Source: an uncultured delta proteobacterium (GTDB taxonomy: Bacteria > Myxococcota > Myxococcia > Myxococcales > Anaeromyxobacteraceae). From it: a stretch of DNA of 64,000 nt. Numbering within the stretch: position 1 is the first letter of the stretch; each line of letters opens with the position of its first letter. Both the position numbers and the translations under genes were made by a program. This document shows, piece by piece, positions 12,181 to 31,433 of this stretch. Below the pieces are notes generated by a model. That model saw only the letters and a program-made list of their open reading frames with translations, was not told the origin of the DNA and made no database searches. The DNA lies in NCBI GenBank assembly GCA_963814585.1, contig CAWFDF010000012.1, forward strand, positions 352,001-416,000, given 5' to 3'.

Positions 12181-13333
12181 TCAGGTGTTCTTAACGCGCC
12201 GCTCGGCCTCGCGCCGGCCCCAGTCGCTCGCCGCCAGCGCCTGGTCCACCGAGCCCAGCCGCTCGACGGCGTGCGCCTCCAGCACCTCGGCGCAGAGCCG
12301 CGCGATGTCGGTGAAGCGGCAGCGCCTGGTCAGGAAGGCCGCCACCGCCGCCTCGTCGGCGCCGGAGAGGACGGCCGGGGCGGTCCCGCCCAGCTCCAGG
12401 GCCCGGTAGGCGAGCCGGTAGGCCGGGAAGCGGACCGGATCGGGTGCCTCGAAGGAGAGCTGCCCCAGCCGGGCCAGGTCCAGCGGCGGCAGGTCGAGCG
12501 GCAGCCGGTCCGGGTGGCCCAGGGCGTAGCTGATGGGGCCGCGCATGTCGGAGATGCCCAGCTGGGCCACCACCGAGCCGTCGATGTACTCCACCATCGA
12601 GTGCACGATCGACTCCGGGTGGACGACGATGTCGATGCGGGCCGGCGTCGACGTCGAAGAGCCAGCGGGCCTCGATCACCTCCAGCCCCTTGTTCATCAG
12701 CGTCGCCGAGTCGACGGTGATCTTGTCGCCCATCGACCAGGTGGGGTGCTTGAGCGCCTGCTCCGGCGTCACCCCCGGCAGCTCGCCGGCCGCCACCCCG
12801 CGCAGCGGGCCGCCCGAGGCGGTGAGGAGGAGCCGGCGCACCTCGCCGTGGTTGTGCCCCAGCAGCGCCTGGTGGATGGCGGAGTGCTCGCTGTCGACCG
12901 GCAGGATGGCGCCGCCCCGCTCGGCGGCGAGGCGCATGACCAGCTCGCCGGCCAGCACCAGCGACTCCTTGTTGGCCAGCCCCACGTCCTTGCCGGCCTC
13001 GACCGCGGCGGCGGTGGAGCGCAGCCCGGCGCCCCCCGAGATGGCGGCCAGCACGAAGTCGACCTCGGGGTGGGTCGCCGCGGCCACCACGCCGTCGTCG
13101 CCGGCCCGCACCTCGATGCCCGGCGGGAGCAGGGTCCGGAGCGCCGCGGCGGCGGCCGGGTCGGCGGCGGCCACCAGCCTGGGGCGGAGGCGCAGCGCCT
13201 GCTCGGCCAGGCGCTCGACGTTGCGGCCGGCCGCCAGCGCCACCACCCGGAAGCGCTCCGGGAAGCGTGCCACCACGTCGAGCGCCTGCACGCCGACGGA
13301 GCCGGTGGAGCCGAGGATGGCGAGTCGGCGCAT
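12181..13333 (-). CDS. dxr: 1-deoxy-D-xylulose 5-phosphate reductoisomerase (apparent frameshift near 12640)
   Basis: LGSTGSVG, LANKESLV, PVDSEHSAI, DSATLMNKGLE; continues in another frame HPESIVHSMVEY...DMRGPI. Confidence 0.95.
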
Positions 13334-13367
13334 CGGGCCGGACCCTAGCACGCGGGCCGGGCGCGGC

Positions 13368-14953: not shown

Positions 14954-15026
14954 GGGCGCTCTATAGCACGGGACCGACCGGACCGGGCCGTTTGACCAAT
15001 GGAGCGAGCCATTCCATGCTGCCCGG

Positions 15027-16100
15027 GTGGTCCCGCACTTCATCGGCCCGTGGGAGCTGCTCGCGGTCATCGGCCGGGGCGGCGTCGGCGTGGTCTACAA
15101 GACCGTCCACCGCGCCACGGGGAAGCCGGCGGCGCTCAAGCTGCTGGGCCCGGCGCCGCTGGTCGAGCCGCGGGCGGCGCGGCGGCTGGCGCGCGAGTTC
15201 GAGGTGCTCCGGCGGCTCGACCATCCCAGCGTGGTCCACGTCTACGAGGCTGGCGTCCACGAGGGCTACTCCTACCTGGCCATGGAGCTGGTGGAGGGGC
15301 TCGACCTCCGCGCCTTCCTCTCGCCGGTGCTCGACGAGCCGCGCGCCGTCAGCCCGCCCGGGGCCAGCGCCTCCCACGCCCCGGCCACCGCCGGCCCGGG
15401 AGCCTCCGGGGAGCTGGGGCCCGACGCCATGCGGGCGCTCGCCACCATGATGGAGGAGCCGGAGACCGCGCCCGACGGCATCCACCCGCCCCTCCCCGCC
15501 GGCCCCCACGGCGGGGCCCGGCCGCCGCCCCGCCCCCCGCTCTCGCCGGCGCTGGCCGCCGCGCTCAACCGGCCGCTCCGGATGCTGCGGCTCTCGGTGG
15601 CGCTGCGGCAGGTGCTGTCCGGGCTCGACTACATCCACCGCCACGAGCTGATCCACCGCGACCTGAAGCCCTCCAACATCATGGTGGACGACCACCGGAC
15701 CGCGCGGATCATGGACTTCGGCCTGGTCAAGTGCGACGACGGCGCCGAGCCGCTCACCGGCACCGGGCGGGTGGTCGGCACCTATCGCTACATGTCGCCG
15801 GAGCAGGCCCAGGGGCGGCTCATCGACCCGCGCAGCGATCTCTACAGCCTCGGCGTCATCCTCTACGAGCTGCTCAGCGCCGCCCCGCCCTTCACCGCGA
15901 GTGATCCGGCGGCGCTCTGGCAGCAGATCCTCCACGACCGGGCGCCGGCGCTGGCCACCCTCAACCCGGGCGTCGACCCGCTCCTGGCGGCGGTGGCCGA
16001 GCGCTGCCTCGCCAAGGACCCGGCGGCCCGGTTCGAGAGCGCGGCCGAGATCCTGGGCCTGCTGGGGCACCCGGACCACGACCACGGCGCGGGGCGCTGA
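15027..16100 (+). CDS. Hanks-type Ser/Thr protein kinase with Pro-rich insertion
   Basis: GRGGVGVVY, ALK, HRDLKPSN, DFG, GTYRYMSPE, DLYSLG. Confidence 0.93.
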   Translation: MVPHFIGPWELLAVIGRGGVGVVYKTVHRATGKPAALKLLGPAPLVEPRAARRLAREFEVLRRLDHPSVVHVYEAGVHEGYSYLAMELVEGLDLRAFLSPVLDEPRAVSPPGASASHAPATAGPGASGELGPDAMRALATMMEEPETAPDGIHPPLPAGPHGGARPPPRPPLSPALAAALNRPLRMLRLSVALRQVLSGLDYIHRHELIHRDLKPSNIMVDDHRTARIMDFGLVKCDDGAEPLTGTGRVVGTYRYMSPEQAQGRLIDPRSDLYSLGVILYELLSAAPPFTASDPAALWQQILHDRAPALATLNPGVDPLLAAVAERCLAKDPAARFESAAEILGLLGHPDHDHGAGR

Positions 16101-16105
16101 CCGGC

Positions 16106-16882
16106 GTGGACCTCCTGCTCTCCACCCTCTCCGGGCTGGCGGCGGGCCTCCTCTCCGGCGTCTTCGGCATCGGCGGCGGCGTGGTGCTGGTGCCCATGCT
16201 GGGGCTGGTGCTGGGGCTCGGGCAGCACGACGCCCAGGGGATGACGCTGGCCATCCTGCTGCTGCCGGTGGGGCTGGCCGCGGTGATCGAGTACCACCGG
16301 GCCGGCTACGTCCGCTGGCGGTTGGTGGCGCCGCTGGTGGCCGGCTTCCTGGGCGGGGTCTGGCTCGGCGCCGCGGCGGCGACGGCGGTGGCCGAGCGCC
16401 CGCTGCGGCTCGGCTTCGTGGCCTTCCTGGTGGCGCTGGCGGTGCGCAACTGGAGGTCGGCGGGGAGGGCGCGCGGGGCGGGTGGCGCGGTGGCGGAGCC
16501 GGCGGCGGCGGGCCGGATCCTGGCCCACGCCCTCTGGATCGGCGCGGCCGGCGGCCTGGCCTCCGGGCTGCTCGGGATCGGCGGCGCGGTGGTGATGATT
16601 CCGCTGCTGGTGGCGGCGCTCGGCCTCCGCCAGCACGAGGCGCAGGGGACCAGCCTGGCGGTGATGCTGCCGCCCGTCGGCCTGCCCGGGGTGCTGGTCT
16701 ACGCCAGGGCCCAGGGCGGCCTGCCGTGGCTGGTGATCGGCTGCGTGGCGGCCGGCTTCCTGATCGGGGGCGCGCTGGGCGCCCGGGTGGCGCGGCGGGT
16801 GGCGGGCCCGGCGCTGGTGCGTGGCTTCGCCGTCTTCCAGCTCACCGTGGCGGCGGCGCTGCTGGCCCGGGCGCTCGGGTAG
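16106..16882 (+). CDS. TauE/SafE-family membrane protein
   Basis: Duplicated GxxSGxxGIGGG motifs, AQG(M)TSL, ~8 TM. Confidence 0.88.
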   Translation: MDLLLSTLSGLAAGLLSGVFGIGGGVVLVPMLGLVLGLGQHDAQGMTLAILLLPVGLAAVIEYHRAGYVRWRLVAPLVAGFLGGVWLGAAAATAVAERPLRLGFVAFLVALAVRNWRSAGRARGAGGAVAEPAAAGRILAHALWIGAAGGLASGLLGIGGAVVMIPLLVAALGLRQHEAQGTSLAVMLPPVGLPGVLVYARAQGGLPWLVIGCVAAGFLIGGALGARVARRVAGPALVRGFAVFQLTVAAALLARALG

Positions 16883-19268
16883 GCGACATGCCCGCCGACC
16901 CCTCCGGCACCAGCCAGACGCGGAGCAGGGCATTCCAGTGGGCCTCGGTGAGCTGGTCGTTGGGCGTGACCCAGAGGTCGCGCGCGCCCCCCTCCAGCGC
17001 CGCCGCCAGGGTGGCGGCCAGCTCGTCGGACCCCATCGTCGTCCCGCCCGGCCCCCAGAGCCCCACCGACATGCTCCAGCGGCCGGCCGGGAGCGTGGCC
17101 GCCAGGCGCCGGGCCAGGTCGCCCGACGCCGCGACGGGCAGACCCTCCAGGGCGCGGTAGTTCCAGACCACCAGCCGGTCGGCGTGGCGCAGCAGGCGCG
17201 CGTAGTCGTGGCCGTGGTCGCGGCCGTCGCGTGCCAGGTCCTTCCAGCTGGCGGCCACGTCGACCCAGAGCTGCTTGCCGTGCCGGTGGGCGGCCTCGGC
17301 GCACCGCTGGACGAACCGCTCCATCAGCGCCGACTTCCACGCCCAGACCTCCGGGGACTCGACGTCGGGGCGGCCCCGCCCGTCACGGGGCCAGTCGGCC
17401 CTGCCGCTGGTGGCCCGGAAGGAGGCCAGGTCGGCCGGGCCGAACGAGGTCTGCCGGTAGGCCGCCTCGGTGAGGTCGATGGCGTCGACGGCCTGGGTCC
17501 TGGCGATCTCCTCGACCATCTGGACCACCAGCCCGCCGAACTCGCCGTCCGCCAGCTCGGCCAGGCCCACCTGCTCGGGGTGGGCCGTCCCGTCGGCCAG
17601 GATCGCGGCCGAACCCGGGTGGGTGGCGATCCAGGTGGGCGCGTAGAGATCGACGAAGGCGGCCACCTGGAAGCCGCGGGCGCGGAACTCCGCCGCGGCG
17701 GTGGCCAGCAGGTCCTCGGGCGAGCCCTTCTGGTGGTTCGACCAGCGCGCCTCCTGGCCCATCCAGCGGAAGTAGGCCCAGTCGGTGCGGCCGGCCTCCA
17801 CGCCGATCACCTGGCCGACGCCGACCAGCCACCGGTCCGTCACCCGGCGGATGGCGTCGTGCCAGTCGCCGTACGGGTTGAAGTGGGTGGAGAGCCCGAG
17901 CGCGAAGGCCGGCCGTGCCGCGCGGTCCCCGGCCCCGGGCACGGGGGCCATCACCACGACCGGAGCCGGGGCCGGGGCCGGCCGCAGCAGGAGCGCCACG
18001 CCCGCCACCGTGGCCACCAGGACCACCCACGCCACCACCGTGCCCCAGGGGCGACGCCCGGCCGCGGCCGCGCCCTCCAGGCGCCCCAGCTTCTCCCACT
18101 TCTCCTCGGCTCGGTTCATCTCTTTCCACCATGAGTACAGGACGACGGCGTTGAGGAAGTACGACACCGGCAGGATGAGGAGGCCAAACGGGAGGTAGGC
18201 GAGATCGCGCCACTCCCGGTCGAGCAGGATGCCGTAGACCGCCACCGCGAAGAAGAAGAAGAGCCCGAGCCAGGCCGCCAGCTCCCAGGGGCCCCGGAGC
18301 GCGATCCAGCCACGGGACAGCGCCAGCGGCAGCGCCAGGAGCAGCCCGGTCTGCAGGAGCGGCACCAGCGCCATGTTGGCGAAGTTGACCGGCAGGTAGA
18401 GCGAGAAGGGCCAGGCGTCGCGGGCGAGGAAGCGCCCGCGGTAGCGCCGGGCGATCTTGAGGTAGCTGCGCACCCAGCGGACGCGCTGGCGCCAGAGCCC
18501 GTCGAAGGTGGCCGGGCAGTCGGCCAGCACCATGGGCTCCGGATCGAAGACGATCCGCTTGCCGGCCAGCTGCAGCCGCCAGGTGAGCTCCAGGTCCTCG
18601 CCCCAGATCGGCTCGAAGCCGCCCACCTCGTCGAGCACGCGCCGGCGGATGGCGCCGAGGTTCCCGGAGATGATGGGCAGGCAGCCGATCACCGACAGGG
18701 CCCGGCGGACGTAGCCGGTGCCGATGTGGGTGGTGATCACCAGCAGCTTCTGCAGGGCGGTGGCGGCCCGGAGCGGCGCGTCGTTGCCGCAGACGGCGTC
18801 GATGGACGGATCGGCGAACCAGCGGACCAGCTGGGCCAGGGTGTCGCGGAGGAAGAGGCTGTCGGCGTCGGTGTAGACCACCACCTCGCCGGTGGCGGCG
18901 GCGATGCCGGCGTTGAGGGCCCGCGCCTTGCCGGCGTTGGCCTGCCGGACCAGCCGGATGCGGCCGGCGTCGGCCAGCCCCTGCACCCGATCGGCGGTGC
19001 CGTCGCGCGAGCCGTCGTCGACCACCACGACCTCGAGGTCGTGCCAGGCCGACTCCAGCAGGGTCTCGACGCTGGCCCGGATGGTGCGCGCCTCGTTGTA
19101 GGCGGGCACCACCACGGTCACCCGCCCCGTGAACGGCGGCAGGCGGCGCAGGGCCCGACGCTTCCACCACTCATAGGCGAGCGTGAGCGGGAAGTAGATC
19201 GCCCCCTGGAGTCCGAGGACGAAGACCGTCAGGCCGAAGGCCCAGAAGAGGGCGTGCAGGGCGCTCAT
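16842..19268 (-). CDS. Processive GT2 polysaccharide synthase (PgaC/IcaA-like) fused to C-terminal TIM-barrel glycoside-hydrolase-like domain
   Basis: PAYNE, DDGS, GKARALN, TDAD, GED, QRVRW; TM helices; ~330-aa C-terminal domain with GHL10/PgaB-C-like pattern. Confidence 0.82.
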   Translation of the reverse strand: MSALHALFWAFGLTVFVLGLQGAIYFPLTLAYEWWKRRALRRLPPFTGRVTVVVPAYNEARTIRASVETLLESAWHDLEVVVVDDGSRDGTADRVQGLADAGRIRLVRQANAGKARALNAGIAAATGEVVVYTDADSLFLRDTLAQLVRWFADPSIDAVCGNDAPLRAATALQKLLVITTHIGTGYVRRALSVIGCLPIISGNLGAIRRRVLDEVGGFEPIWGEDLELTWRLQLAGKRIVFDPEPMVLADCPATFDGLWRQRVRWVRSYLKIARRYRGRFLARDAWPFSLYLPVNFANMALVPLLQTGLLLALPLALSRGWIALRGPWELAAWLGLFFFFAVAVYGILLDREWRDLAYLPFGLLILPVSYFLNAVVLYSWWKEMNRAEEKWEKLGRLEGAAAAGRRPWGTVVAWVVLVATVAGVALLLRPAPAPAPVVVMAPVPGAGDRAARPAFALGLSTHFNPYGDWHDAIRRVTDRWLVGVGQVIGVEAGRTDWAYFRWMGQEARWSNHQKGSPEDLLATAAAEFRARGFQVAAFVDLYAPTWIATHPGSAAILADGTAHPEQVGLAELADGEFGGLVVQMVEEIARTQAVDAIDLTEAAYRQTSFGPADLASFRATSGRADWPRDGRGRPDVESPEVWAWKSALMERFVQRCAEAAHRHGKQLWVDVAASWKDLARDGRDHGHDYARLLRHADRLVVWNYRALEGLPVAASGDLARRLAATLPAGRWSMSVGLWGPGGTTMGSDELAATLAAALEGGARDLWVTPNDQLTEAHWNALLRVWLVPEGSAGMSPTRAPGPAAPPPR

Positions 19269-19272
19269 CGGG

Positions 19273-21096
19273 TCAGCGCACCAGCACCAGCGAGCGGAAG
19301 GCCAGCGCGTACCGGGCCCCGACCTGGAGGCCGCGGTGGGCGGCCCGTCCCCGGATCACCTGCGGATCCATGTAGGGCCGGTGGGCCTGGGTCGCATGCA
19401 GGGCGCAGGCCCGCAGGTGGTCGTCGAGGTAGTGGCTGATGTCCACGAACAGGTTGGGCTGGAACCGCTCGGTGGTCGAGACGTCCTCGTAGCAGAGCAC
19501 CGTGGGCACGCCGCGCGCCGCCTCGCGGGTGGCGGCGTGGACGGCCCGGTGGTCGCCGTGGACGTCGGCGTCGCTGTGGGTCAGCACGACGGTGGGCCGC
19601 AGCTCCTTCACCCGGACCTCGATGGCCGCCTTCACCTCCCCCACCCGATCCTGGAGGCCGCTGTCGGGCAGGTCGAGCACCTCGTGGCCGTCGAGCCCGA
19701 GGAAGCGGGCGGCGCGGGCGCTCTCCTCCGGCCGGGCCTCGGGCCGGTCGGTGCCGCGCTCGCCCCGGGTCAAGGTGAGGCCGTGGACCTGCGCGCCGCT
19801 GGCCTTGAGCTTGAGGATGAAGCCGGCGCAGCCGAGCTCGATGTCGTCGGGGTGGGCGCCCACCATCAGCACCACCTGTCCGGCGAACTCCGGCTCGGTC
19901 GGCTCGCGCCGCAGCACCGCCAGCAGCGCCGTGGCCAGGCCGGCGATGATCAGCACCTCGGTGCCCGCCTCGATGATGCGGGGATCCGTCCAGCTCGTAA
20001 GCCACGGCTGGAACACGAAGGTGGCCACGTTCAGGACCAGGGCGACCGGCACCACCCAGACCGCCATCAGGCGCGCCCAGGGGCGGCGGCGGAGGCCGTG
20101 GCGGACCCGCCCCGAGACCAGCACCAGGAGCGGCAGCAGGGCCACGTGCACCAGGAGCTCGGCCCACTCGGAGGTGCTGCGGAGCGGCGCCAGCGCCCCC
20201 TCGCGGTCGAGCGCCGCGGTGAGCTGGATGGCCCCCTCGTCGCTCGGGCTCATCCGCAGGGCCAGCACGGCGTGCTCGCGGGCCGGGATGAGCCGGCCCT
20301 GCGCCAGGTAGCTCCGCCCCAGCGCCACCTGGGCCGAGGCCGACTCGGGGTCGAGCTGGGTCACGACCGACCAGGCGGCGATGGCCGCGGGCCAGTCCCT
20401 GCGGCGCTCCTGGGTCTCGGCCAGCAGGCGCCGGGCCTCGAGATCGGCCGGGGCGATCGCCACCGCCGCCTGCGCCGCCCCGAGGGCCTCGTCGAGCCTC
20501 CCCTGCTGGGAGAGGAGCCGGGCCTGGTCCCGGTGGAGATCGGCGTCCCGGGGGTAGAGCCGCAGCGCCCGCTCCAGCACCGGGGCGGCCCCGGCGGCGT
20601 CACCCCGGAGCAGCCGGGTGCGGGCCATGCCCTTGAGCGCCTCGTGGTAATCCGGGTGCCTGGCCAGGACGTCCTCGTAGAGCCGCTCCGCCTCGTCGAG
20701 CCGCTTGGCCCAGGAGAGCGCGTCGGCCAGGTCGCTCTGCAGCGCCGCGTCGTCGGGGCGCCGCGCGATGGCCTCGCGGTAGCGGACGATGGCCTCGTCG
20801 TAGCGGCCGGCCCAGGCCAGGAGCTGTCCGAGGTGGCCGAGCGCGTCGGCGTCGCGCGGGGCGATGGCGAGGAGCTGCTGGTAGGAGCGGATGGCGTCGT
20901 CGAAGCGGTGCTCCTTGGTGTGGGCGCGGCCCTGGCGGCGCAGCTCCTCGATCCCGGCCGCCGTGCTCCCGGACTCCGCCGGCGGGAAGGGGGGCGGCGG
21001 CCCGTCACCGGGGGCGCCGCGCTGGGCCAGGGCGATCGGCGAGCCACCGGCGACGAGCAGGGCCACCAGGGCCGCGGGCGGGAGAGGGAGCTTCAC
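19273..21096 (-). CDS. Signal peptide-TPR-3TM-PIG-L/LmbE deacetylase fusion
   Basis: GTG 21096 inferred; ~7 TPRs; three hydrophobic helices; AHPDDIE, TRGE, HGDH motifs. Confidence 0.85.
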   Translation of the reverse strand: MKLPLPPAALVALLVAGGSPIALAQRGAPGDGPPPPFPPAESGSTAAGIEELRRQGRAHTKEHRFDDAIRSYQQLLAIAPRDADALGHLGQLLAWAGRYDEAIVRYREAIARRPDDAALQSDLADALSWAKRLDEAERLYEDVLARHPDYHEALKGMARTRLLRGDAAGAAPVLERALRLYPRDADLHRDQARLLSQQGRLDEALGAAQAAVAIAPADLEARRLLAETQERRRDWPAAIAAWSVVTQLDPESASAQVALGRSYLAQGRLIPAREHAVLALRMSPSDEGAIQLTAALDREGALAPLRSTSEWAELLVHVALLPLLVLVSGRVRHGLRRRPWARLMAVWVVPVALVLNVATFVFQPWLTSWTDPRIIEAGTEVLIIAGLATALLAVLRREPTEPEFAGQVVLMVGAHPDDIELGCAGFILKLKASGAQVHGLTLTRGERGTDRPEARPEESARAARFLGLDGHEVLDLPDSGLQDRVGEVKAAIEVRVKELRPTVVLTHSDADVHGDHRAVHAATREAARGVPTVLCYEDVSTTERFQPNLFVDISHYLDDHLRACALHATQAHRPYMDPQVIRGRAAHRGLQVGARYALAFRSLVLVR

Positions 21097-21109
21097 GACG
21101 AGGTGACTC

Positions 21110-22399
21110 TTACAGCACCCCGGTTCGCCACTCCACGTCGAGCAGCAGCGTGGCGTCGCTGCGTGGACCGGCGGTGGGGCTGGTGCTCTCCGGGCCCGGG
21201 TTGGCCACGTACTTGAAGCCGCCTCCCAGCGCCAGTGCGGGCGTGATCCCGTAGCGGGCCCGGGCCCAGAAGACGTTGCCGTCCTTGCCGGCGAAGGTGG
21301 GACCGGAGGCGCTGGAGTAGCGATCGAAGATCCACTGGAGGTCGAGGGCGAGCCGCTCCTGCGGCCGGAGCTCCAGCGCCGAGAGGACCGACCAGGCATA
21401 GCTGGCGTCGAGGTCGCGGTTGGGGATGACGCGGACGCTGGCGGTGAGCAGGTCCGACTCCCAGGCCACACCGCCGCCCACCAGCAGCTCGCGGCGCATG
21501 ACGACGTCGGTGGCGGCGGCACAGTCCGGCGACGGGGCCCCGGGCGTGCAGACGGTGCCGGCCGGGGCCCCGGGCAGCGGCCGGCCCTTGATGGCGGTCT
21601 GGTCGGGATCCGGGTCGAAGAGCACGGCGGCCACGGCGGAGATCGCGAAGCCGTGGCCGAGCAGGACCTCGACGTCGGCGGTGGCCTTGTGGTTCACCAC
21701 GTAGGTCTGCGGATCGTAGAAGAAGTTGGGCGTGAAGAGCTGGTACGCCAGCCCGGCCCGGACCGTCCTGCCGAAGCGGTGGGAGACCTCGACCTCGATG
21801 CGCGGGACCAGGTCGTAGGCGTTCGAGTCGGGCGTGGGCCGATCGGCGCCGGAGTAGGCGTAGCGGCGCAGCGAGAGGTCGCCCTTCAGGTAGGAGCCGG
21901 GGGCGTGGAAGAAGTAGGCGGTCGCGTAGCCCTTGGCGGACTCGTAGAAGATGCTGTCGGACCACCCGGCGCCGGCCTGCAGCTCGAGGCGATCGAGGCC
22001 GGCGTAGCGGAGCTGTCCCTCCACCGCCTGCTTGGAGGTGCCGGGCTCGGTGCCGCCCAGCCAGGCCCGGACCGCCAGCCCGCGCGAGCGCTCCAGCGCG
22101 GCCAGGTCGTCCCGCGCCTCCCGGTCGGCGGGGTCGATCGCGATCGCCTGGCGGAGGGCCTCGGCGGCCTCGGGCGTCCGGTGCAGCCCCCGGAGCGACC
22201 AGCCGATCCGCTTCCAGGTCTCGGCGCTCGGGCCGCCCGCCGCCAGCTCGGCCTGGTACTCGGCCAGCGCCGCCTGGTACCGTCCCTCGGCGCGCCGCCG
22301 ATCGCCCTCGGCCTGATGGGCCTGCGCGGCGGCGGGATCGGCCGCTGCGGCGGGGCCGGCGAAGTGCAGCAGGACCGTCAGGGGCAGGATCAGGCGCAT
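21110..22399 (-). CDS. TPR plus predicted outer-membrane beta-barrel (YaiO/PgaA-like export protein)
   Basis: Signal peptide, two TPRs, Tyr/Phe-rich alternating strands to the C-terminus. Confidence 0.65.
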   Translation of the reverse strand: MRLILPLTVLLHFAGPAAAADPAAAQAHQAEGDRRRAEGRYQAALAEYQAELAAGGPSAETWKRIGWSLRGLHRTPEAAEALRQAIAIDPADREARDDLAALERSRGLAVRAWLGGTEPGTSKQAVEGQLRYAGLDRLELQAGAGWSDSIFYESAKGYATAYFFHAPGSYLKGDLSLRRYAYSGADRPTPDSNAYDLVPRIEVEVSHRFGRTVRAGLAYQLFTPNFFYDPQTYVVNHKATADVEVLLGHGFAISAVAAVLFDPDPDQTAIKGRPLPGAPAGTVCTPGAPSPDCAAATDVVMRRELLVGGGVAWESDLLTASVRVIPNRDLDASYAWSVLSALELRPQERLALDLQWIFDRYSSASGPTFAGKDGNVFWARARYGITPALALGGGFKYVANPGPESTSPTAGPRSDATLLLDVEWRTGVL

Positions 22400-23262
22400 C
22401 GTCCGTTCCTCCAGGCGTCATCGAGGGCGTCGAGCACCTCGCGCGCGGTGAGCACGTTGGCGCCGAGCCGGGCGTTGAGCTCCAGCACCGCCGGCCTTCC
22501 GTCGAGGCCGACCCGGACGTCGGCGTCGAGCGGCCCCTCGAGCCGGAGCACCCGGGCGGCCGCGACCGCGAGGGCGGCCAGGTCGGGGCGATGGACGCGC
22601 TCGACCCCGGTGGCGTTGCCCACCTCCCCGTCCTTCAGGCCGGTCTTGCGGAGCACCACCGCCGCCGGAACGCAGCCGTCGCGCTCGAGGAACAGGTTCA
22701 CGTCGAACTCCTCGCCGGGGAGGAAGGCCTGCCAGACCACCTCCTCGGCGCCGATCCGCGCCAGATCGGCGAGCGTCCGGTGGACCAGCACGCCGCGCCC
22801 GCCGCGCCCGAAGCGCGGCTTGGAGAGCAGCGGGAGGGCGAGCTGCCGGGCGGCCTCGACGCCGGTCATGGTCCCCGGGAAGGTGGCCGGGGCCGCCACG
22901 CCCGCCCGGGCCAGGGCCTGGGCCGTGAGCAGCTTGTCGTTGGCGACGTCGATCCCGGCCGGCTCCGAGACCGCGGCCGCGATGCCGCGCTCGCGCAGCA
23001 CCGGGCGGATCCGGGAGACGACCGGCAGCTCCTCGGTCACGGTGGGCACCACCAGCGACGCCCGCCCGGCCACGGCCAGGTCGACGAGCGCCGAGGGGTA
23101 GGCCGGATCGCGGGCCATGGGCACCAGCCGGAACTCGGTCGCCGCCGACGCCACCTCGCGCACGTCGGTCCCGATCACCCGGTAGCCGCGCTCCACGAAG
23201 TAGGCCGCACCGGCCCGGCCCGCCGGGCCGCCCACGCCCGTCACCAGCACGGTTGCATTCAC
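22390..23262 (-). CDS. ATP-grasp domain ligase
   Basis: VPTVTEEL, DKLLT, KPRFGRGGRG, QAFLPGEEF, LELNAR. Confidence 0.88.
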   Translation of the reverse strand: MNATVLVTGVGGPAGRAGAAYFVERGYRVIGTDVREVASAATEFRLVPMARDPAYPSALVDLAVAGRASLVVPTVTEELPVVSRIRPVLRERGIAAAVSEPAGIDVANDKLLTAQALARAGVAAPATFPGTMTGVEAARQLALPLLSKPRFGRGGRGVLVHRTLADLARIGAEEVVWQAFLPGEEFDVNLFLERDGCVPAAVVLRKTGLKDGEVGNATGVERVHRPDLAALAVAAARVLRLEGPLDADVRVGLDGRPAVLELNARLGANVLTAREVLDALDDAWRNGRCA

Positions 23263-23469
23263 CTGAAGTGTTCCTCCCAGGTGCTTCTTGACTCACGACA
23301 AGGGCCGCTGACAACCCGGATTTCCGCCGACCGCGCCTCCGCAAGGATCAAGCCCTTGACACGACAGGTGAATCTGGATTGTGGCAACTTGGTGACGAAC
23401 CGGACCGGGGCCCGAGTCCAGGGTGGCGAGGCGGCCTCCACCGTCACCCTCCTCCGCTACACTGCGCTC

Positions 23470-24150
23470 ATGTCGGACCTGGCTCCGGGCGACCTGTCCT
23501 ACCAGCTGGTGGTGGCCGAGTACTTCCTCGGCCTCTCCGGCAAGGGGCTGATGGTCTCGCCGCTCGACCGGGAGCTGGTCGCCGACTGGGAGCGGCGCGG
23601 CCTCCCGGTGCCGGTGGTGCTGCGCGGCCTGCAGCAGGGCTGGCAGGACTTCGAGCTGCGCCGCGCCCCCGGCGCCAGCGCGCCCCGCTCGATCCGCGCC
23701 CTGCGCTTCGCCGTCGAGGACGAGTGGCGCGCCTTCACCTCGCGCGCGGTGGGCGACGCCCCGCCGCCGCCGAACGAGTCCGGCGCCGCCGGGGCCCGGC
23801 TCGACGCGGCCCGCCGGCGGCTCGCCGAGGCCGTCGACGGCGCCCCGGCGGCCTGGCGCACCGGCTACCGCGCGGCGCTCGCCGAGCTCGACGCCACCGT
23901 CGCCGCCGGCCCGGGCGTCTCGCTGGAGCGGGTCGAGGCCGCGGTCGCCGCCGCCGACGCCCGCCTGCTCTCGGCCTGGCTGGCCTCGCTCGACCGCCCT
24001 CGCCGCGCCGCCCTCGGCCCCCGCCTCGCGCTCCGGGCCGGCCCCCGCCACCGCGGCGCCAGCCGGCGCGCCCACCGGGAGACCCTGCGCCACCACCTGC
24101 TCGAGGCCGCCCGCGCCGCCGGGCTGACCTGCCTGCGGGGAACGGTGTAG
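23470..24150 (+). CDS. Hypothetical protein with DnaD-like N-terminal segment
   Basis: EYF...GLMVSPLDRELVADWERRGLPVPVVLRGL; 13 bp upstream of DnaC-like ATPase. Confidence 0.55.
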   Translation: MSDLAPGDLSYQLVVAEYFLGLSGKGLMVSPLDRELVADWERRGLPVPVVLRGLQQGWQDFELRRAPGASAPRSIRALRFAVEDEWRAFTSRAVGDAPPPPNESGAAGARLDAARRRLAEAVDGAPAAWRTGYRAALAELDATVAAGPGVSLERVEAAVAAADARLLSAWLASLDRPRRAALGPRLALRAGPRHRGASRRAHRETLRHHLLEAARAAGLTCLRGTV

Positions 24151-24163
24151 AGTCCGCGCCCTG

Positions 24164-25051
24164 ATGTCCACCCCGGTCGAGAGCACCCCGTGCGCGTCCT
24201 GCGGCGGCGCCGGCTACCTGGTCGAGCAGGTCCTCGGCAAGACGGCCCGGGCTCGCCGCTGCGAGTGCCAGGCCCGCTGCACCCGCTGCAACGGCAGCGG
24301 CTTCGCGCTGGTCCCCTCGCCGTCCGGGCCGGTGGCGCAGGCCTGCTCCTGCCGGCACCTCGACGAGCGGCTGGCGCTCTTCAACCAGATCGGCATCCCC
24401 GCCGCGGTCGCCAGGGCCAGCTTCGACGGCTTCAAGGTCTGGTCGCCGGAGCACGCCGGGGCCAAGGGCATCGCCGAGGACTTCGCCCGGAAGTTCCGCC
24501 GGGACGAGCCCACCAAGGGCTTCCTCCTCTACGGCCGGCCCGGCGGCGGGAAGACCCACCTGCTGGCCTCGACGCTGCGCTGGCTGGCCCTGGAGAAGGG
24601 CGTGGCCAGCCGCTACGTCGAGTTCATGCTGCTGCTCTCGGACATGAAGGACGGCTTCGGCGCGGGGCGGAGCCACATGGAGATCCTGCGGCCGCTCCTC
24701 TCGGTCCCGGTGCTGGCCATCGACGAGCTGGGCAAGGAGCGCGGCACGCCCTGGGAGCAGTCGATGCTCGACGAGCTGATCAGCCGCCGCTTCAACAGCG
24801 GCCTCTCCACGCTCTTCGCCACCAACTACTTCGTCGAGCCGCGCGCCGCGCCCCCGGATCCCGCCCGCCGGGCCGATCCGCGCTCCCCGGAGTTCCGGCA
24901 GGAGGCCGAGTCCATGACCCTGGCGCAGCGGGTCGGCGACCGGATCTACTCCCGGCTGAGCGAGATGTGCACCTTCGCCAAGCTCGATCCGGGCATGGAC
25001 GTCCGCAAGGACGTGCACGGCGCCGGGGCCGGGGGCTTCTGGCGCCGCTGA
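24164..25051 (+). CDS. DnaC/IstB-like AAA+ ATPase with N-terminal Cys-rich Zn-binding region
   Basis: CxxCGG/CxC repeats, Walker A GRPGGGKT, Walker B LAIDELGKE, ATN, RIYSRL. Confidence 0.85.
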   Translation: MSTPVESTPCASCGGAGYLVEQVLGKTARARRCECQARCTRCNGSGFALVPSPSGPVAQACSCRHLDERLALFNQIGIPAAVARASFDGFKVWSPEHAGAKGIAEDFARKFRRDEPTKGFLLYGRPGGGKTHLLASTLRWLALEKGVASRYVEFMLLLSDMKDGFGAGRSHMEILRPLLSVPVLAIDELGKERGTPWEQSMLDELISRRFNSGLSTLFATNYFVEPRAAPPDPARRADPRSPEFRQEAESMTLAQRVGDRIYSRLSEMCTFAKLDPGMDVRKDVHGAGAGGFWRR

Positions 25052-25072
25052 GCGCGGGCGCGCGGCCGGCAG

Positions 25073-25222
25073 CTACATCGCCAACATCACCAGCAGCGCC
25101 ATCGCTGTGACGACGATGACCAGGGACCGCCTCCCGCTCGGCCGCGACGCCTCCGCGGCCGCCCCGGAGAGGGGGCGCCGGCTCCTGCTGCTCCATGCAA
25201 GGCTGGTCGGCTGCGTGGTCAT
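25073..25222 (-). CDS. 49-aa small protein with C-terminal TM helix (below ORF-track cutoff)
   Basis: MTTQPTSLAWSSRSRRPLSGAAAEASRPSGRRSLVIVVTAMALLVMLAM*; SD GGAGG upstream; sigma54-like motif upstream. Confidence 0.5.
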   Translation of the reverse strand: MTTQPTSLAWSSRSRRPLSGAAAEASRPSGRRSLVIVVTAMALLVMLAM

Positions 25223-25257
25223 GGCCCCTCCCCCGTCTCGGCGTGACGGCATGATCC

Positions 25258-25273
25258 AGCAAGCCGCGTACCC
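25258..25273 (-). promoter_or_regulatory. Putative sigma54 promoter of the 49-aa ORF
   Basis: Minus strand GG-TACGCGGCTT-GC(T): GG-N10-GC with TTGC. Confidence 0.45.
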
Positions 25274-25430
25274 GCCTGGTCACGAAAGGGACGCCCGCCA
25301 TTTCAGGTGGATCCGGGGCCGGTGTCCCGTGAACCCGGGTGGTACGGCGACGCCCCGCGGGTCGTCGGAGCCCGGTCCACGGGGACCCGGTGCGTCCATG
25401 TCGGACAGCCCCCGGCGACCTCGGCGCAGG

Positions 25431-26594
25431 CTACCCGATCAACCTACGGTGTATTTCACGCGCCGTGTCGGCGAGGAGCCCCGCCTCGGCGTACACCGTC
25501 ACCTCGAGCGGCCCCACCTCGACCGCCAGCGGCGCCGCGCCCAGCGCCGCCAGCGCCGCCACCAGGGCCTCGCGGACCCGCGGGGTGGCGGCCACCCCGG
25601 TCCCGACCACGGTCACCGCGCCGATCCCCTCGGCGGTGACGCGGGCCCCGTCGATCTCGCGCCCCAGCGCCTCGGCCAGCGGCGCGAAGCCGTGGACGTT
25701 CTCGAGCGCCACGGCCAGCACCGCGCGGCCCGGCGCCCCCTCGACGCGCGCCCACGGGGCGTGGGCCGCCGCCAGCAGGGCCTGCGCCCGCCCGGCCGCC
25801 GCCTCCGGGACGTCCACCAGCGCCAGCTCCCGCTCGACCGCCACGCCGGCGATCCGCGCGACGCCGCTCCCGGCACGCACCACCGTCTCCTCGTCGCCGC
25901 CGAAGCTGCTCCGGGCCCGGATGGCGATGCCGGTGCTCCGGGCGAACTCCACCGCCTGGGCGTTGAGCACCTTGGCGCCGGCCCGGGCCAGCGCCTGCAT
26001 CTCCTCGTAGGAGAGCTCGTCCTGCCGCCGCGCCCCGGGCACCACCCGCGGGTCGGCGGTGAAGACCCCGGCCACGTCGCTGTAGATCTCGCAGTCGGCG
26101 GCCAGCGCCGCCGCCAGGGCCACCGCCGTGGTGTCCGAGCCGCCCCGCCCCAGCGTGGTGATCTCCCGGCGCGCCGAGACGCCCTGGAAGCCCGCCACGA
26201 TCACCACCTTGCCCCGGGCCAGCTCCTCGCGGACCCGGGTGGGCCGCACCTCGAGGATGCGCGCGGTGGCGTGGGCGTCGGAGGTCAGGATGCCGGCCTG
26301 GCTGCCGGTGAAGCTGATGGCGTCCACCCCCAGCTCCTGCAGCGCGATGGAGAGGAGCGCCATCGAGATGCGCTCGCCGGCCGTGAGCAGCATGTCGAGC
26401 TCGCGCCGCGGCGGGTCGGGAGAGACCTGCTTCGCCAGCCGCAGCAGGTCGTCGGTGGTGTCGCCCATGGCCGAGACCACCACGCAGACGTCGTCCCCGG
26501 CCCGGCGGCGCGCCGCCACCCTGGCCGCCACGCGCCTCAGCCTGTCGACGTCGGCCACCGAGGACCCGCCGTACTTCTGGACCACCACCGCCAT
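25431..26594 (-). CDS. lysC: Aspartate kinase
   Basis: [39 protein letters not shown]. Confidence 0.93.
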
Positions 26595-27331: not shown

Positions 27332-29309
<1,978 letters not shown>

Positions 29310-29388: not shown

Positions 29389-29808
29389 CTAGAGCGCTCC
29401 GAAGAGCGCGGTGGCCACCCGGCCCAGCCCCTCGACCACGCCGGCCGGCCAGAGCAGCAGCGGCAGCGCCAGGCCGAACCCCATCCCGATGGCCAGCGCC
29501 CGCGGGTGCAGCCGCTCCTCGAGCCGCGCCTCCAGGGCCGAGACCCCGGTGAGCGTCAGCGTCAGCAGCCCGCCGGTCACGAAGGCCGCCGGGGGCGGGA
29601 AGCCGAGCAGCACCAGCCCCGCCGAGAGCGCCACCACCGCCGCGGCGTTGATGACGTCCCGGCCGTGGCCCGCCCACCAGGCCCGGTGCTCCTCGCGCCG
29701 CAGGTGCTCGCCCAGCTCCTCCAGCCGGACCGTCCCGGCCACCGCGGCCAGCAGGGCCAGCCGGGCCAGCAGCTGCTCGGCGTCGCCGCGCGGCTGGAGC
29801 GTCCACAT
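29389..29808 (-). CDS. Hypothetical membrane protein
   Basis: Three to four hydrophobic helices, GC3-rich frame. Confidence 0.6.
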   Translation of the reverse strand: MWTLQPRGDAEQLLARLALLAAVAGTVRLEELGEHLRREEHRAWWAGHGRDVINAAAVVALSAGLVLLGFPPPAAFVTGGLLTLTLTGVSALEARLEERLHPRALAIGMGFGLALPLLLWPAGVVEGLGRVATALFGAL

Positions 29809-29836
29809 GCCGTGGATGGTACCGGAGCGTGCGCCG

Positions 29837-30613
29837 TCAGGGAACGCCGGGGAGGAGCTCGAGCACCGAGCTGCTCCTCCGCTCCCCCGCCTCGCCGGCC
29901 CCCGACCAGCGCCGCTCGTCCTGGAAGGACACCGCCAGCAGCCGGTCGCCCACCCGGGTGAAGCGCCAGGCCTGCTTCACCTCGGTCTCGAAGGTGATGA
30001 TCAGGAAGACCCGCCCCTTGCCGAGCAGCCGCGCGTCCGCGGCCAGCGGCAGCCCGTCGGGGCCGAGCCAGATCCTGCCGATGGCGTCCAGGTCCTTCAG
30101 GTACTTCCGCTCCCGGGCCTGCAGCGCCGGCGAGAGCCGCAGCACCAGCAGCCGGGCCGGCGCGCCGTCGAGCCGATCCTCCCTCTCCTCGATCAGCGTG
30201 GCGCGCGCCAGCTCGTCGCGGAGCTTGCCCGCCGCGTCCAGGCGGTTGGCGAGATCGATGGCCTGCACCTGCGCCAGGCCGTCGCGCGTGGGCGTCGATG
30301 CCTCGTGGTCGGCGGCGTGGCGCCGCTCCTCCTCGCGCGCCTGCTGGAGGACCGCATGTCCCCAGCGGATCTCCAGGCCGCTGGCGGTCTCGGTGGCCTC
30401 GCCGGACACCTCCCCGCCCACCTTGAGCGCCTCCTGGCCCTCGCCGGTGACGTTCTCGAACCGGACCGTGAACCGGGCGGAGACCGGCGTCCTCGCCGTG
30501 AGCCTCCCCAGCGCGGCCTGCAGGTCGGCGAGCGGATCGGGGCGCGGCCCGATGGCCGGATCGGCGCCCAGCGCCAGCGCGGCCAGCAGGGCGAGGGAGG
30601 TGGAGGCGGTCAT
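29837..30613 (-). CDS. Hypothetical secreted protein (possible LolA-like beta fold)
   Basis: Signal MTASTSLALLAALALG; EDRLDGAPARLLVL...GRIWLGPDGLP pattern. Confidence 0.6.
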   Translation of the reverse strand: MTASTSLALLAALALGADPAIGPRPDPLADLQAALGRLTARTPVSARFTVRFENVTGEGQEALKVGGEVSGEATETASGLEIRWGHAVLQQAREEERRHAADHEASTPTRDGLAQVQAIDLANRLDAAGKLRDELARATLIEEREDRLDGAPARLLVLRLSPALQARERKYLKDLDAIGRIWLGPDGLPLAADARLLGKGRVFLIITFETEVKQAWRFTRVGDRLLAVSFQDERRWSGAGEAGERRSSSVLELLPGVP

Positions 30614-30677
30614 GCGACCTTCATAGCGTGGCGGCGGCCGCCCGGCTCATCGGCCTTCGGCAGGCACCTCGGGTCGA

Positions 30678-31433
30678 TCAGTCCCTCGGCTCGCGCTCCA
30701 GCGCCGCCTGCACCAGCGCCACCAGGTCGCCGACGCGCCGCACCCGTGGCACCGCCGCCTCGTCGAGCGTCACGCCGAACCGCTCCTCGAGCGCCAGCAG
30801 GAGGCGCAGGGCCCCGAGCGAGTCCCAGCCCGCCAGGTCGTTCGGCCCCTGCTCCGGCGAGGGCGGCGCCGCCAGCGCCAGCGTCTCGGCCACCACCCGC
30901 GGCACCTCGGCGGCCGGGTCGTCGGCCGCCGGCTGCTGGCCCGGGCCGACGGGGCGCGCCGGCACGCCGCCGACGGTGGCGCCGGCCGGCACCTCACCGG
31001 AGACCACGCTGCCGGCCAGCACCCGGGCCCCGTCGCCGACCACGGCGCCTCGCAGCACCGTGACCCGGCTCCCGAGCCGGACCTGGCGACCCAGCGAGAT
31101 GGGGCTGCTCTCCGGGCGGGCCTCGCGCTGGCCGGCCACGTGGAAGTCGGTGTCGGCGATGGAGACGAAGGGGCCGATCCGCGTCCCGGCGCCGATGCGG
31201 ATGCGGGCGTGGGCGGCGACCGCGGCGCCGTGACCGATGGTGACGTCGTCGCCGATCTCGAGCTCACCGCCCGGGGCCACCACCAGGTGGGACTGGACCG
31301 GCACCGAGGCGAGGCGGAGCCGCTCCCCGACCACGAGCCGACCGCGGTTCTCGATCCAGGGTCGCCCGTCCAGCGCGGCGCCGGCGCCGAGCCGGTCGCA
31401 GCGGCGAAGCCAGAAGGCGGCCCGGAGCGTCAC
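30678..31433 (-). CDS. Hexapeptide-repeat (LbH) acyltransferase fused to C-terminal acyl carrier protein
   Basis: IGDDVTIG, IADTDFH, GGVPAR; ACP motif GWDSLGALRLLLALEERFGV; GTGA coupling to fkbH. Confidence 0.85.
   Translation of the reverse strand: MTLRAAFWLRRCDRLGAGAALDGRPWIENRGRLVVGERLRLASVPVQSHLVVAPGGELEIGDDVTIGHGAAVAAHARIRIGAGTRIGPFVSIADTDFHVAGQREARPESSPISLGRQVRLGSRVTVLRGAVVGDGARVLAGSVVSGEVPAGATVGGVPARPVGPGQQPAADDPAAEVPRVVAETLALAAPPSPEQGPNDLAGWDSLGALRLLLALEERFGVTLDEAAVPRVRRVGDLVALVQAALEREPRD

Follow-up and report, generated by a model that had tools for sequence, protein, structure and literature searches.

What kind of polymer would be made by a glycosyltransferase operon that also encodes a PIG-L-type de-N-acetylase and an ATP-grasp ligase? 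This question is raised by four intact, minus-strand open reading frames (ORFs) at positions 16842-23262 of a 64,000-nt stretch of DNA (the window, to whose positions coordinates refer unless another locus is named; contig CAWFDF010000012.1, 352,001-416,000 forward, assembly GCA_963814585.1). In order, they encode a predicted ligase of the PRK12767/PylC-like ATP-grasp type, assigned by Pfam and NCBIfam (22390-23262; 290 amino acids (aa), without signal or transmembrane (TM) segment); a protein with a signal peptide, a short TPR region and a predicted outer-membrane beta-barrel, recognized by TPR Pfam matches and homologs (21110-22399; 429 aa); a fusion of signal peptide (aa 1-24), predicted periplasmic TPR superhelix (aa 45-300), three TM segments (aa 308-395) and PIG-L/LmbE de-N-acetylase (aa 408-607) (19273-21096; 607 aa); and a putative processive-type family 2 glycosyltransferase (GT2) fused to a predicted periplasmic glycoside hydrolase (GH)-like TIM barrel (16842-19268; 808 aa). 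The genes are tightly coupled, with gaps of at most 13 bp: the first two overlap by 10 bp, and the PIG-L gene lies 13 bp from the TPR-barrel gene and 4 bp from the GT2 gene. This is the four-gene operon that an earlier note on this DNA (hereafter the original prediction) had described. The genome holds one copy of each gene.

We conclude that these genes represent a variant of synthase-dependent polysaccharide secretion that is real and widespread, seems not to have been described before and pairs a deacetylase with a ligase, both predicted to be cytoplasmic. Characterized bacterial synthase systems (cellulose, alginate, poly-N-acetylglucosamine (PNAG) and Pel) usually modify their chain once it is outside the cytoplasm. 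We give an even chance to the reading that what the cassette produces and exports is a polymer of N-substituted amino sugars, formed by a deacetylate-then-ligate route, whose substrate, order of steps, acyl donor and product we infer.

The original prediction depended on conserved linkage of the ATP-grasp, PIG-L and GT2 genes, and such linkage is what we observe. Loci were chosen from GTDB genomes by two GT2 peptide patterns only, yielding 70 loci, 69 of them with a clear GT2 match; the hidden Markov models used to detect the partner genes were built from these same 69 loci. An ATP-grasp gene is present in 59/69 loci, a PIG-L gene in 62/69, both in 56/69 and the GH domain in 60/69. In each of the remaining 13 of the 69 loci, the contig breaks off on the side that carries the missing partner in relatives (for L039, L043 and L053, this side was taken from L049-51 and L056). 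In a reverse search starting from the ATP-grasp, the barrel gene was the neighbor in 10/10 of the top loci. Gene order differs between loci, and the distances of GT2, ATP-grasp and PIG-L correlate (Spearman 0.78-0.81 across 61 loci, among which kin are not independent). The ligase is retained in loci down to about 30% identity.

The labels of the records carrying these loci name ten bacterial phyla as well as Methanosarcina; with Actinomycetota, contributed by an Arthrobacter megaplasmid, the bacterial phylum labels number 11. Relatives come from records labeled Anaeromyxobacteraceae and Myxococcales. Cultured carriers are Herminiimonas aquatilis, Collimonas antrihumi, Glaciimonas soli, Stakelama marina and Sphingobium faniae. 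The operon is accessory, and an empty site exists. The ligase is found in 16/151 genomes of the order (10/117 among the near-complete ones); in the same-genus genome G055 the cassette flanks are separated by 916 bp that hold an unrelated gene; and a run X1 contig passes directly from 16885 to 23441, skipping the cassette, with 81 letters on its shorter side. This junction contig delimits the cassette, including the upstream intergenic stretch, to 16886-23440 (strand unspecified). The GC content of the operon is that of its surroundings. The cassette border is marked by a convergent plus-strand membrane-protein gene (16106-16882, TauE/SafE-like by eye), which shares 41 bp with the 3' end of the GT2 gene. 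In two of the three Methanosarcina loci, a GH16-like beta-glucanase gene lies just downstream (L060 10742-11509, L061 5611-6411).

The synthase motifs D85, D134-x-D136, G-E-D225 and Q261-R-V-R-W265 are invariant in 64/64 aligned GT2 homologs, in a layout of one N-terminal TM segment, a GT-A domain, two TM segments with a probable interface helix, and an anchor TM segment. Its structural model matches Chlorella virus hyaluronan synthase (Z 30.2, root-mean-square deviation (rmsd) 4.5, 396 aligned), in a near tie with PcManGT (Z 29.2, rmsd 4.3, 330 aligned), and cellulose synthase (Z 24.1). By motifs and fold, the protein classifies as an inner-membrane processive-type synthase.

The predicted fusion of this D,D,D,QxxRW synthase to a GH-like domain also stands. 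In the model, residues 453-789 (16902-17912, minus strand) form a TIM barrel after the TM anchor, with GHL13/GH153- and GHL10-like features. The best fold match is the GH153 domain of PgaB (6au1; Z 26.1, rmsd 3.7, 314 aligned, 14% identity), nearly tied with Cwp19 (Z 25.3); Atlas gives GHL13 a score of 0.95, Pfam a sub-threshold GHL10 match only, and an HHalign comparison of the GH profile with E. coli PgaB was not significant. The Glu at the end of strand 4 (T600-E601) is conserved in 92/99 distant representatives of the domain, and the Thr-Glu pair falls at the Asp-Asp position of Cwp19 in a weak alignment (E 0.37). The family has no Pfam model and counts 110 representatives at E up to 1e-30; in Chloroflexota and Actinomycetota the domain is a separate, signal-bearing protein. 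On the model, we predict a periplasmic hydrolase acting on the polymer. According to PMC5933820, PgaB GH153 cleaves de-N-acetylated PNAG only and uses D474 (Bordetella PgaB). By analogy, the fold match would count in favor of an amino-sugar polymer made by the deacetylate-then-ligate route.

These matches raise the question of whether the cassette is simply a divergent Pga-like machine making plain or partly deacetylated PNAG, with the PIG-L and ATP-grasp proteins serving in regulation or recycling. The cassette resembles PgaABCD/IcaADBC in its small PgaC-like GT2 (D,DxD,xED,QxxRW; 31% over 228 columns), its GH153-like TIM barrel, its predicted export protein with TPR and barrel, and the presence of a de-N-acetylase in the operon; PgaC_IcaA is also the best NCBIfam model for the GT2, and the GH domain is closest to that of PgaB. 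However, the GT2 scores only 162.3 bits against a PgaC_IcaA cut-off of 422.3, and the ligase persists down to about 30% identity. The deacetylase of the cassette has the PIG-L fold and is predicted to be cytoplasmic, whereas theirs is a periplasmic CE4 enzyme, and in the cassette a single protein holds both synthase and GH domain. No CE4 match was found in the four cassette proteins, and the operon contains no PgaD/IcaD gene, PgaA porin gene, PilZ gene or cyclase gene. With these differences the cassette does not classify as a PNAG (Pga/Ica) system, and we regard PNAG synthesis as very unlikely. By sequence and model, the cassette would instead work like a synthase-dependent secretion system apart from the PNAG type.

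The PIG-L domain is well supported (Pfam E 1.5e-28, 100 bits against a cut-off of 28). Its H415-P-D-D418 and H513-x-D-H516 motifs, to which we assign metal-binding and catalytic roles on the presumption that they follow MshB, are invariant in 60/60 homologs. Foldseek matches (2ixd, 3wl3, 6ull) have the LmbE fold, and solved relatives in the PDB comprise BshB, chitobiose deacetylases, MshB and Dbv21; the best NCBIfam match, BshB1, reaches 96 bits against a cut-off of 182.5. Foldseek matches to the complete models were otherwise dominated by TPR and GT2 proteins. A 749-aa start for this gene was rejected as an upstream extension, homologs being about 607 aa long, which fits a GTG at 21096.

The side of the membrane on which this enzyme faces is central to the proposed route. 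Hydropathy identifies three segments before the PIG-L domain (aa 308-332, 339-367 and 374-397), and the AlphaFold model (pLDDT 84) likewise has three membrane helices between TPR and PIG-L. Across 62 homologs, the first loop of this block (19912-20175, minus strand) is strongly basic, with a mean of 5.7 K/R and 0.2 D/E, compared with 1.4 K/R and 2.8 D/E for the second. The positive-inside rule thus indicates an N-out, C-in orientation and puts PIG-L in the cytoplasm in 61/62 homologs with a complete TM block, L041 being the exception (one truncated and one short protein were left out). A signal-like h-region is present in 83/85 full-length TPR-3TM-PIG-L fusions, and an extra TM-like stretch inside the TPR part in only 2/87 proteins. 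TPR-less bacterial and archaeal forms start straight at TM1 and keep the basic loop. The original prediction would have been in difficulty with an even TM count; the count is three, and we predict from sequence and model that the PIG-L domain is cytoplasmic. In L086 and L113, which have a GT2 of the same family, PIG-L is fused to a receiver (REC) domain without any TM block, and so is a cytoplasmic enzyme with no need to be anchored in the membrane.

The 3TM-PIG-L proteins form a single clade of 66 rows in a quick tree (Shimodaira-Hasegawa-like approximate likelihood ratio test, SH-aLRT, 99). Eight Oxalobacteraceae loci have the barrel gene together with a TPR-less 3TM-PIG-L protein. The TPR arm is therefore optional, and we abandoned the idea, part of the original prediction, that it forms an essential bridge to the barrel. 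In L027 (8170-9992), the TPR and TM-PIG-L parts are two adjacent ORFs, representing either a natural split or an assembly error.

The likely exit route is the TPR/barrel protein, for which we identified 104 full or near-full homologs. It has TPR Pfam matches and a beta-rich C-terminal part. Its betaproteobacterial relatives end in ...TLIYKF, an outer-membrane-type C-terminus, and are homologous to the window protein (HHalign 99.9%, the match being partly TPR); Atlas neighbors also support the assignment. No NCBIfam model matches the protein, that of PgaA included, and the 60 PDB sequence matches listed for the barrel profile are TPR matches only. The barrel gene was not seen in three Chloroflexota loci, three archaeal (Methanosarcina) loci or the Arthrobacter locus, as expected of an export pore. 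It is present in L034, on a contig labeled Eubacteriales that may be mis-binned. We consider the protein a likely outer-membrane export pore.

The ATP-grasp protein matches Pfam ATP-grasp_3 (E 7e-12, 46 bits against a cut-off of 23) and PylC-like_N, and NCBIfam PRK12767 (E 5e-34, under the cut-off). Among 60 homologs, K110, the RGGR loop (G154-G155), D248 and N263 are invariant, and E261 is conserved in at least 90%. The alignments thus confirm intact catalytic motifs for both the ligase and the deacetylase. The best PDB match with the family profile is the uncharacterized 2PN1 (E 8e-28), and there is no characterized close relative. We predict from sequence that this protein is a cytoplasmic carboxylate-amine ligase.

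If deacetylation and ligation belong together, the pairing may recur in other operons. Among metagenome loci picked by PIG-L motifs (the best 80 of 565), a second design, REC-PIG-L / ATP-grasp / intervening gene / GT2, occurs in 11 loci, some of them incomplete, and many other PIG-L matches stand without such neighbors. In L075 (7524-11858) the intervening gene encodes a PHP protein; the sister operons are L083-85, L088, L095, L097, L102, L104, L105 and L115. No GH domain or barrel was detected in the REC-PIG-L operons. The receiver domain may, in passing, be read as placing the deacetylase under signal control.

A third design is the yaiS-yaiP-yaiX-yaiO operon, present in E. coli K-12 and on enterobacterial plasmids; the original prediction had already noted similar parts in yaiO, yaiP and yaiS. 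It has no ATP-grasp but encodes YaiX, a homolog of GlmU/ST0452-type N-acetyltransferases: intact plasmid YaiX matches Arch_glmU and, best in the PDB, the amino-sugar-1-phosphate N-acetyltransferase domain of ST0452 (E 3e-25). Operons of this type lie on conjugative enterobacterial plasmids (L163 5971-9147, L166 5980-9180), and 44/49 PIG-L matches in the plasmid collection are from Escherichia, Salmonella or Enterobacter. Like the cassette, yaiSPXO combines in one operon a PIG-L protein, a PgaC-like GT2, an amine-acylating enzyme and an outer-membrane barrel, the last two being predictions for the cassette. The resemblance holds best for YaiS (35% over 167 aa); YaiP is no closer to the cassette GT2 than PgaC is (31% each, over 227 aa for YaiP), and YaiO has no significant similarity to the cassette barrel, HHalign included. 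Furthermore, YaiX is a left-handed beta-helix acyl-CoA transferase, YaiS is soluble, the GH domain is absent, and the two systems form separate clades in both trees. As the cassette operon encodes neither a hexapeptide transferase nor a barrel similar to YaiO, it does not classify as yaiSPXO. We found no defined product for the enterobacterial operon. Judging by their sequences, the three operon types may be functional parallels, each joining a cytoplasmic PIG-L and a PgaC-like GT2 to an enzyme that acylates amines and has either of two folds unrelated to each other.

Taken together, these observations suggest the following route. Cytoplasmic PIG-L would strip the N-acetyl group from a soluble N-acetylglucosamine (GlcNAc) precursor, probably UDP-GlcNAc; a soluble substrate is favored since the receiver-fused PIG-L and YaiS are both soluble. 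Onto the amine thus exposed, the ATP-grasp enzyme would then ligate an acid common in the cell, either an amino acid or a small carboxylate. An acyl group other than acetyl is expected because removing and restoring acetyl would be futile, and a housekeeping donor because the neighbor clusters contain no recurring sugar-biosynthesis family or sugar dehydrogenase (by clustering; Pfam was not run on every ORF). Polymerization and extrusion would fall to the GT2 and trimming to its fused TIM-barrel hydrolase, with the TPR/barrel protein serving as the passage across the outer membrane. The 3-TM block may help the small GT2 complete its channel, much as PgaD helps PgaC form one; a complex prediction for GT2 (residues 1-398) with the 3TM-PIG-L part (score 0.00, mark 0.32) informs neither way. 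The recurrence of an amine-acylating partner beside PIG-L and GT2 (ATP-grasp here and in the REC loci, YaiX in yai) supports the logic of deacetylating and then re-acylating.

In mycothiol and bacillithiol synthesis (MshB-MshC, BshB-BshC) and in Dbv21-type glycopeptide tailoring, a PIG-L enzyme likewise removes the N-acetyl group before the exposed amine is acylated, all within the cytoplasm. Their PIG-L-family enzymes BshB, MshB and Dbv21 are among the PDB matches of the cassette PIG-L. These pathways differ in yielding small molecules without a membrane synthase or export parts, and they use other glycosyltransferase and ligase folds.

Several observations weigh against the proposed route. 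The mechanism is drawn from genes, motifs, linkage and folds. The N-acyl swap of the original prediction, whose logic finds support in YaiX, lacks a precedent at its first step: none was found for PIG-L acting on UDP-GlcNAc in the parts of the literature accessible to us, and the solved relatives act, judging by PDB names, on GlcNAc-malate, GlcNAc-inositol, chitobiose or glycopeptide GlcNAc. In a quick tree with an unresolved backbone, the 3TM, REC and YaiS PIG-L groups are each supported and not joined, and the GT2s of the three operon types lie on long separate branches; the trees thus leave a functional parallel, with common descent not proven, and the yai likeness may be analogy only. The GT2's closest PDB sequence is PcManGT (28%, E 2e-29), which we take to be a non-processive lipid mannosyltransferase, and the Methanosarcina loci have no GH153-like domain. 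A diverged ATP-grasp in genome G073 (281 bits) stands alone, with no GT2, PIG-L or barrel within 15 kb. ATP-grasps are, finally, also able to act on a sugar's own carboxylate. The G073 orphan (L167 5861-7084, G073:C17) has an altered N-terminal motif and adjoins a MATE-like transporter gene.

Carboxylate chemistry on the sugar itself leads to another possible pathway, in which the ligase would act on a sugar carboxylate (giving, for example, a uronate amide) or make a small co-substrate, while PIG-L separately gives free glucosamine, which would yield a cationic or amidated polymer instead of an N-swapped one. ATP-grasp chemistry is silent on which partner carries the carboxylate, and PRK12767-type proteins are uncharacterized. 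However, no sugar dehydrogenase recurs in the neighborhoods, and the extra enzyme of yai is homologous to amino-sugar N-acyltransferases; we find this pathway quite improbable.

The match to PcManGT, by sequence and at nearly the top fold score, would in turn fit a non-processive glycolipid pathway: the GT2 would put GlcNAc on a lipid, a membrane-anchored PIG-L would deacetylate it as in glycosylphosphatidylinositol synthesis, and the ATP-grasp would aminoacylate the product. Only 3-4 helices of the GT2 are likely to span the membrane, and archaeal loci hold just three cytoplasm-facing enzymes. Yet the hyaluronan synthase fold scores as high over more residues, QxxRW is invariant, and both the GH153-like domain in most of the 69 loci and the barrel gene in diderm loci fit a secreted chain. 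We therefore consider a glycolipid product improbable.

A further alternative arises from nodulation-factor synthesis. NodB is a CE4 enzyme, and NodA uses an acyl group carried by acyl carrier protein (ACP). The chain made by a processive synthase has its growing end inside the GT domain, at the mouth of the channel. According to PMC5080398, NodC, NodB and NodA elongate, deacetylate and acylate, respectively. This offers, by analogy, a precedent for the logic of the cassette, with a GT2 synthase, a deacetylase and an N-acylating enzyme in a single operon; it differs in giving a short signal product modified at one end, without GH domain or barrel, and the NodC model scores only 63 bits on the cassette GT2 against a cut-off of 550. 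The cassette might thus edit only a chain end or primer: the GT2 would make a plain GlcNAc chain, PIG-L would deacetylate the terminal or primer residue, and the ATP-grasp would cap it, leaving the bulk unmodified. The presence of chitobiose deacetylases among the solved relatives and a 3-TM anchor holding PIG-L near the synthase speak for such editing. Poor access to a growing end at the channel mouth counts against it, as does the service of soluble REC-fused PIG-L forms to the same GT2 family, and we judge it unlikely, although the least so of the alternatives to the deacetylate-then-ligate route.

More broadly, and tentatively, the deacetylate-then-ligate route could define a further secretion class common to bacteria and archaea, in which UDP-GlcNAc is converted to UDP-glucosamine (UDP-GlcN) and UDP-N-aminoacyl-GlcN before polymerization. 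The product might be a peptide-decorated chitin- or PNAG-like aminoglycan resisting known PNAG hydrolases, with the REC-fused actinobacterial and yai loci as independent versions using other acyl donors. We see this as possible rather than probable.

We found no description of the system among the titles and abstract openings searched, a scope outside which subscription papers lie, and Iyer et al. 2009 on amidoligases may have predicted the neighborhood. The main text of a survey (PMC7112194) has no mention of ATP-grasp, PIG-L, LmbE or yai. If our reading is true, a deacetylase and a ligase paired in the cytoplasm would diversify polymers by another route, predicting a biopolymer absent from the portion of the literature searched. 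PRK12767-type ATP-grasps, the Pfam-less GH family, the receiver-PIG-L fusions and, by analogy, the orphan yai operon of E. coli would then each gain a first function open to testing. Because cultured carriers exist, the polymer chemistry is directly testable.

Around the operon, Rfam gave no match over window positions 15000-26000 and no sigma-70 promoter was found; two terminator-like sites fall inside genes, probably by chance. RNA run X18 contains short, mostly divergent contigs only and gives no evidence for operon expression. An imperfect palindrome, TTGTC-N4-GTCAA, at 23288-23301 (minus strand) precedes the start of the ATP-grasp gene by about 25 bp, and L002-L004 retain part of it; we presume from its resemblance to an FNR/CRP-family box that it may be a regulator site. 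Elsewhere in the window, groEL (27651-29309, minus strand) is apparently frameshifted, GroEL-like sequence being lost near residue 210 with the middle in another frame (28282-29058), through an assembly error or as a pseudogene. A dxr-like gene (12181-13351, minus strand) appears to be divided between two frames (12191-13351 and 12181-12606), suggesting indel errors in the assembly. Outside the operon, the translations at 29411-33667 appear by eye to form a cluster of genes for hexapeptide acyltransferase-ACP and FkbH-like fusions.

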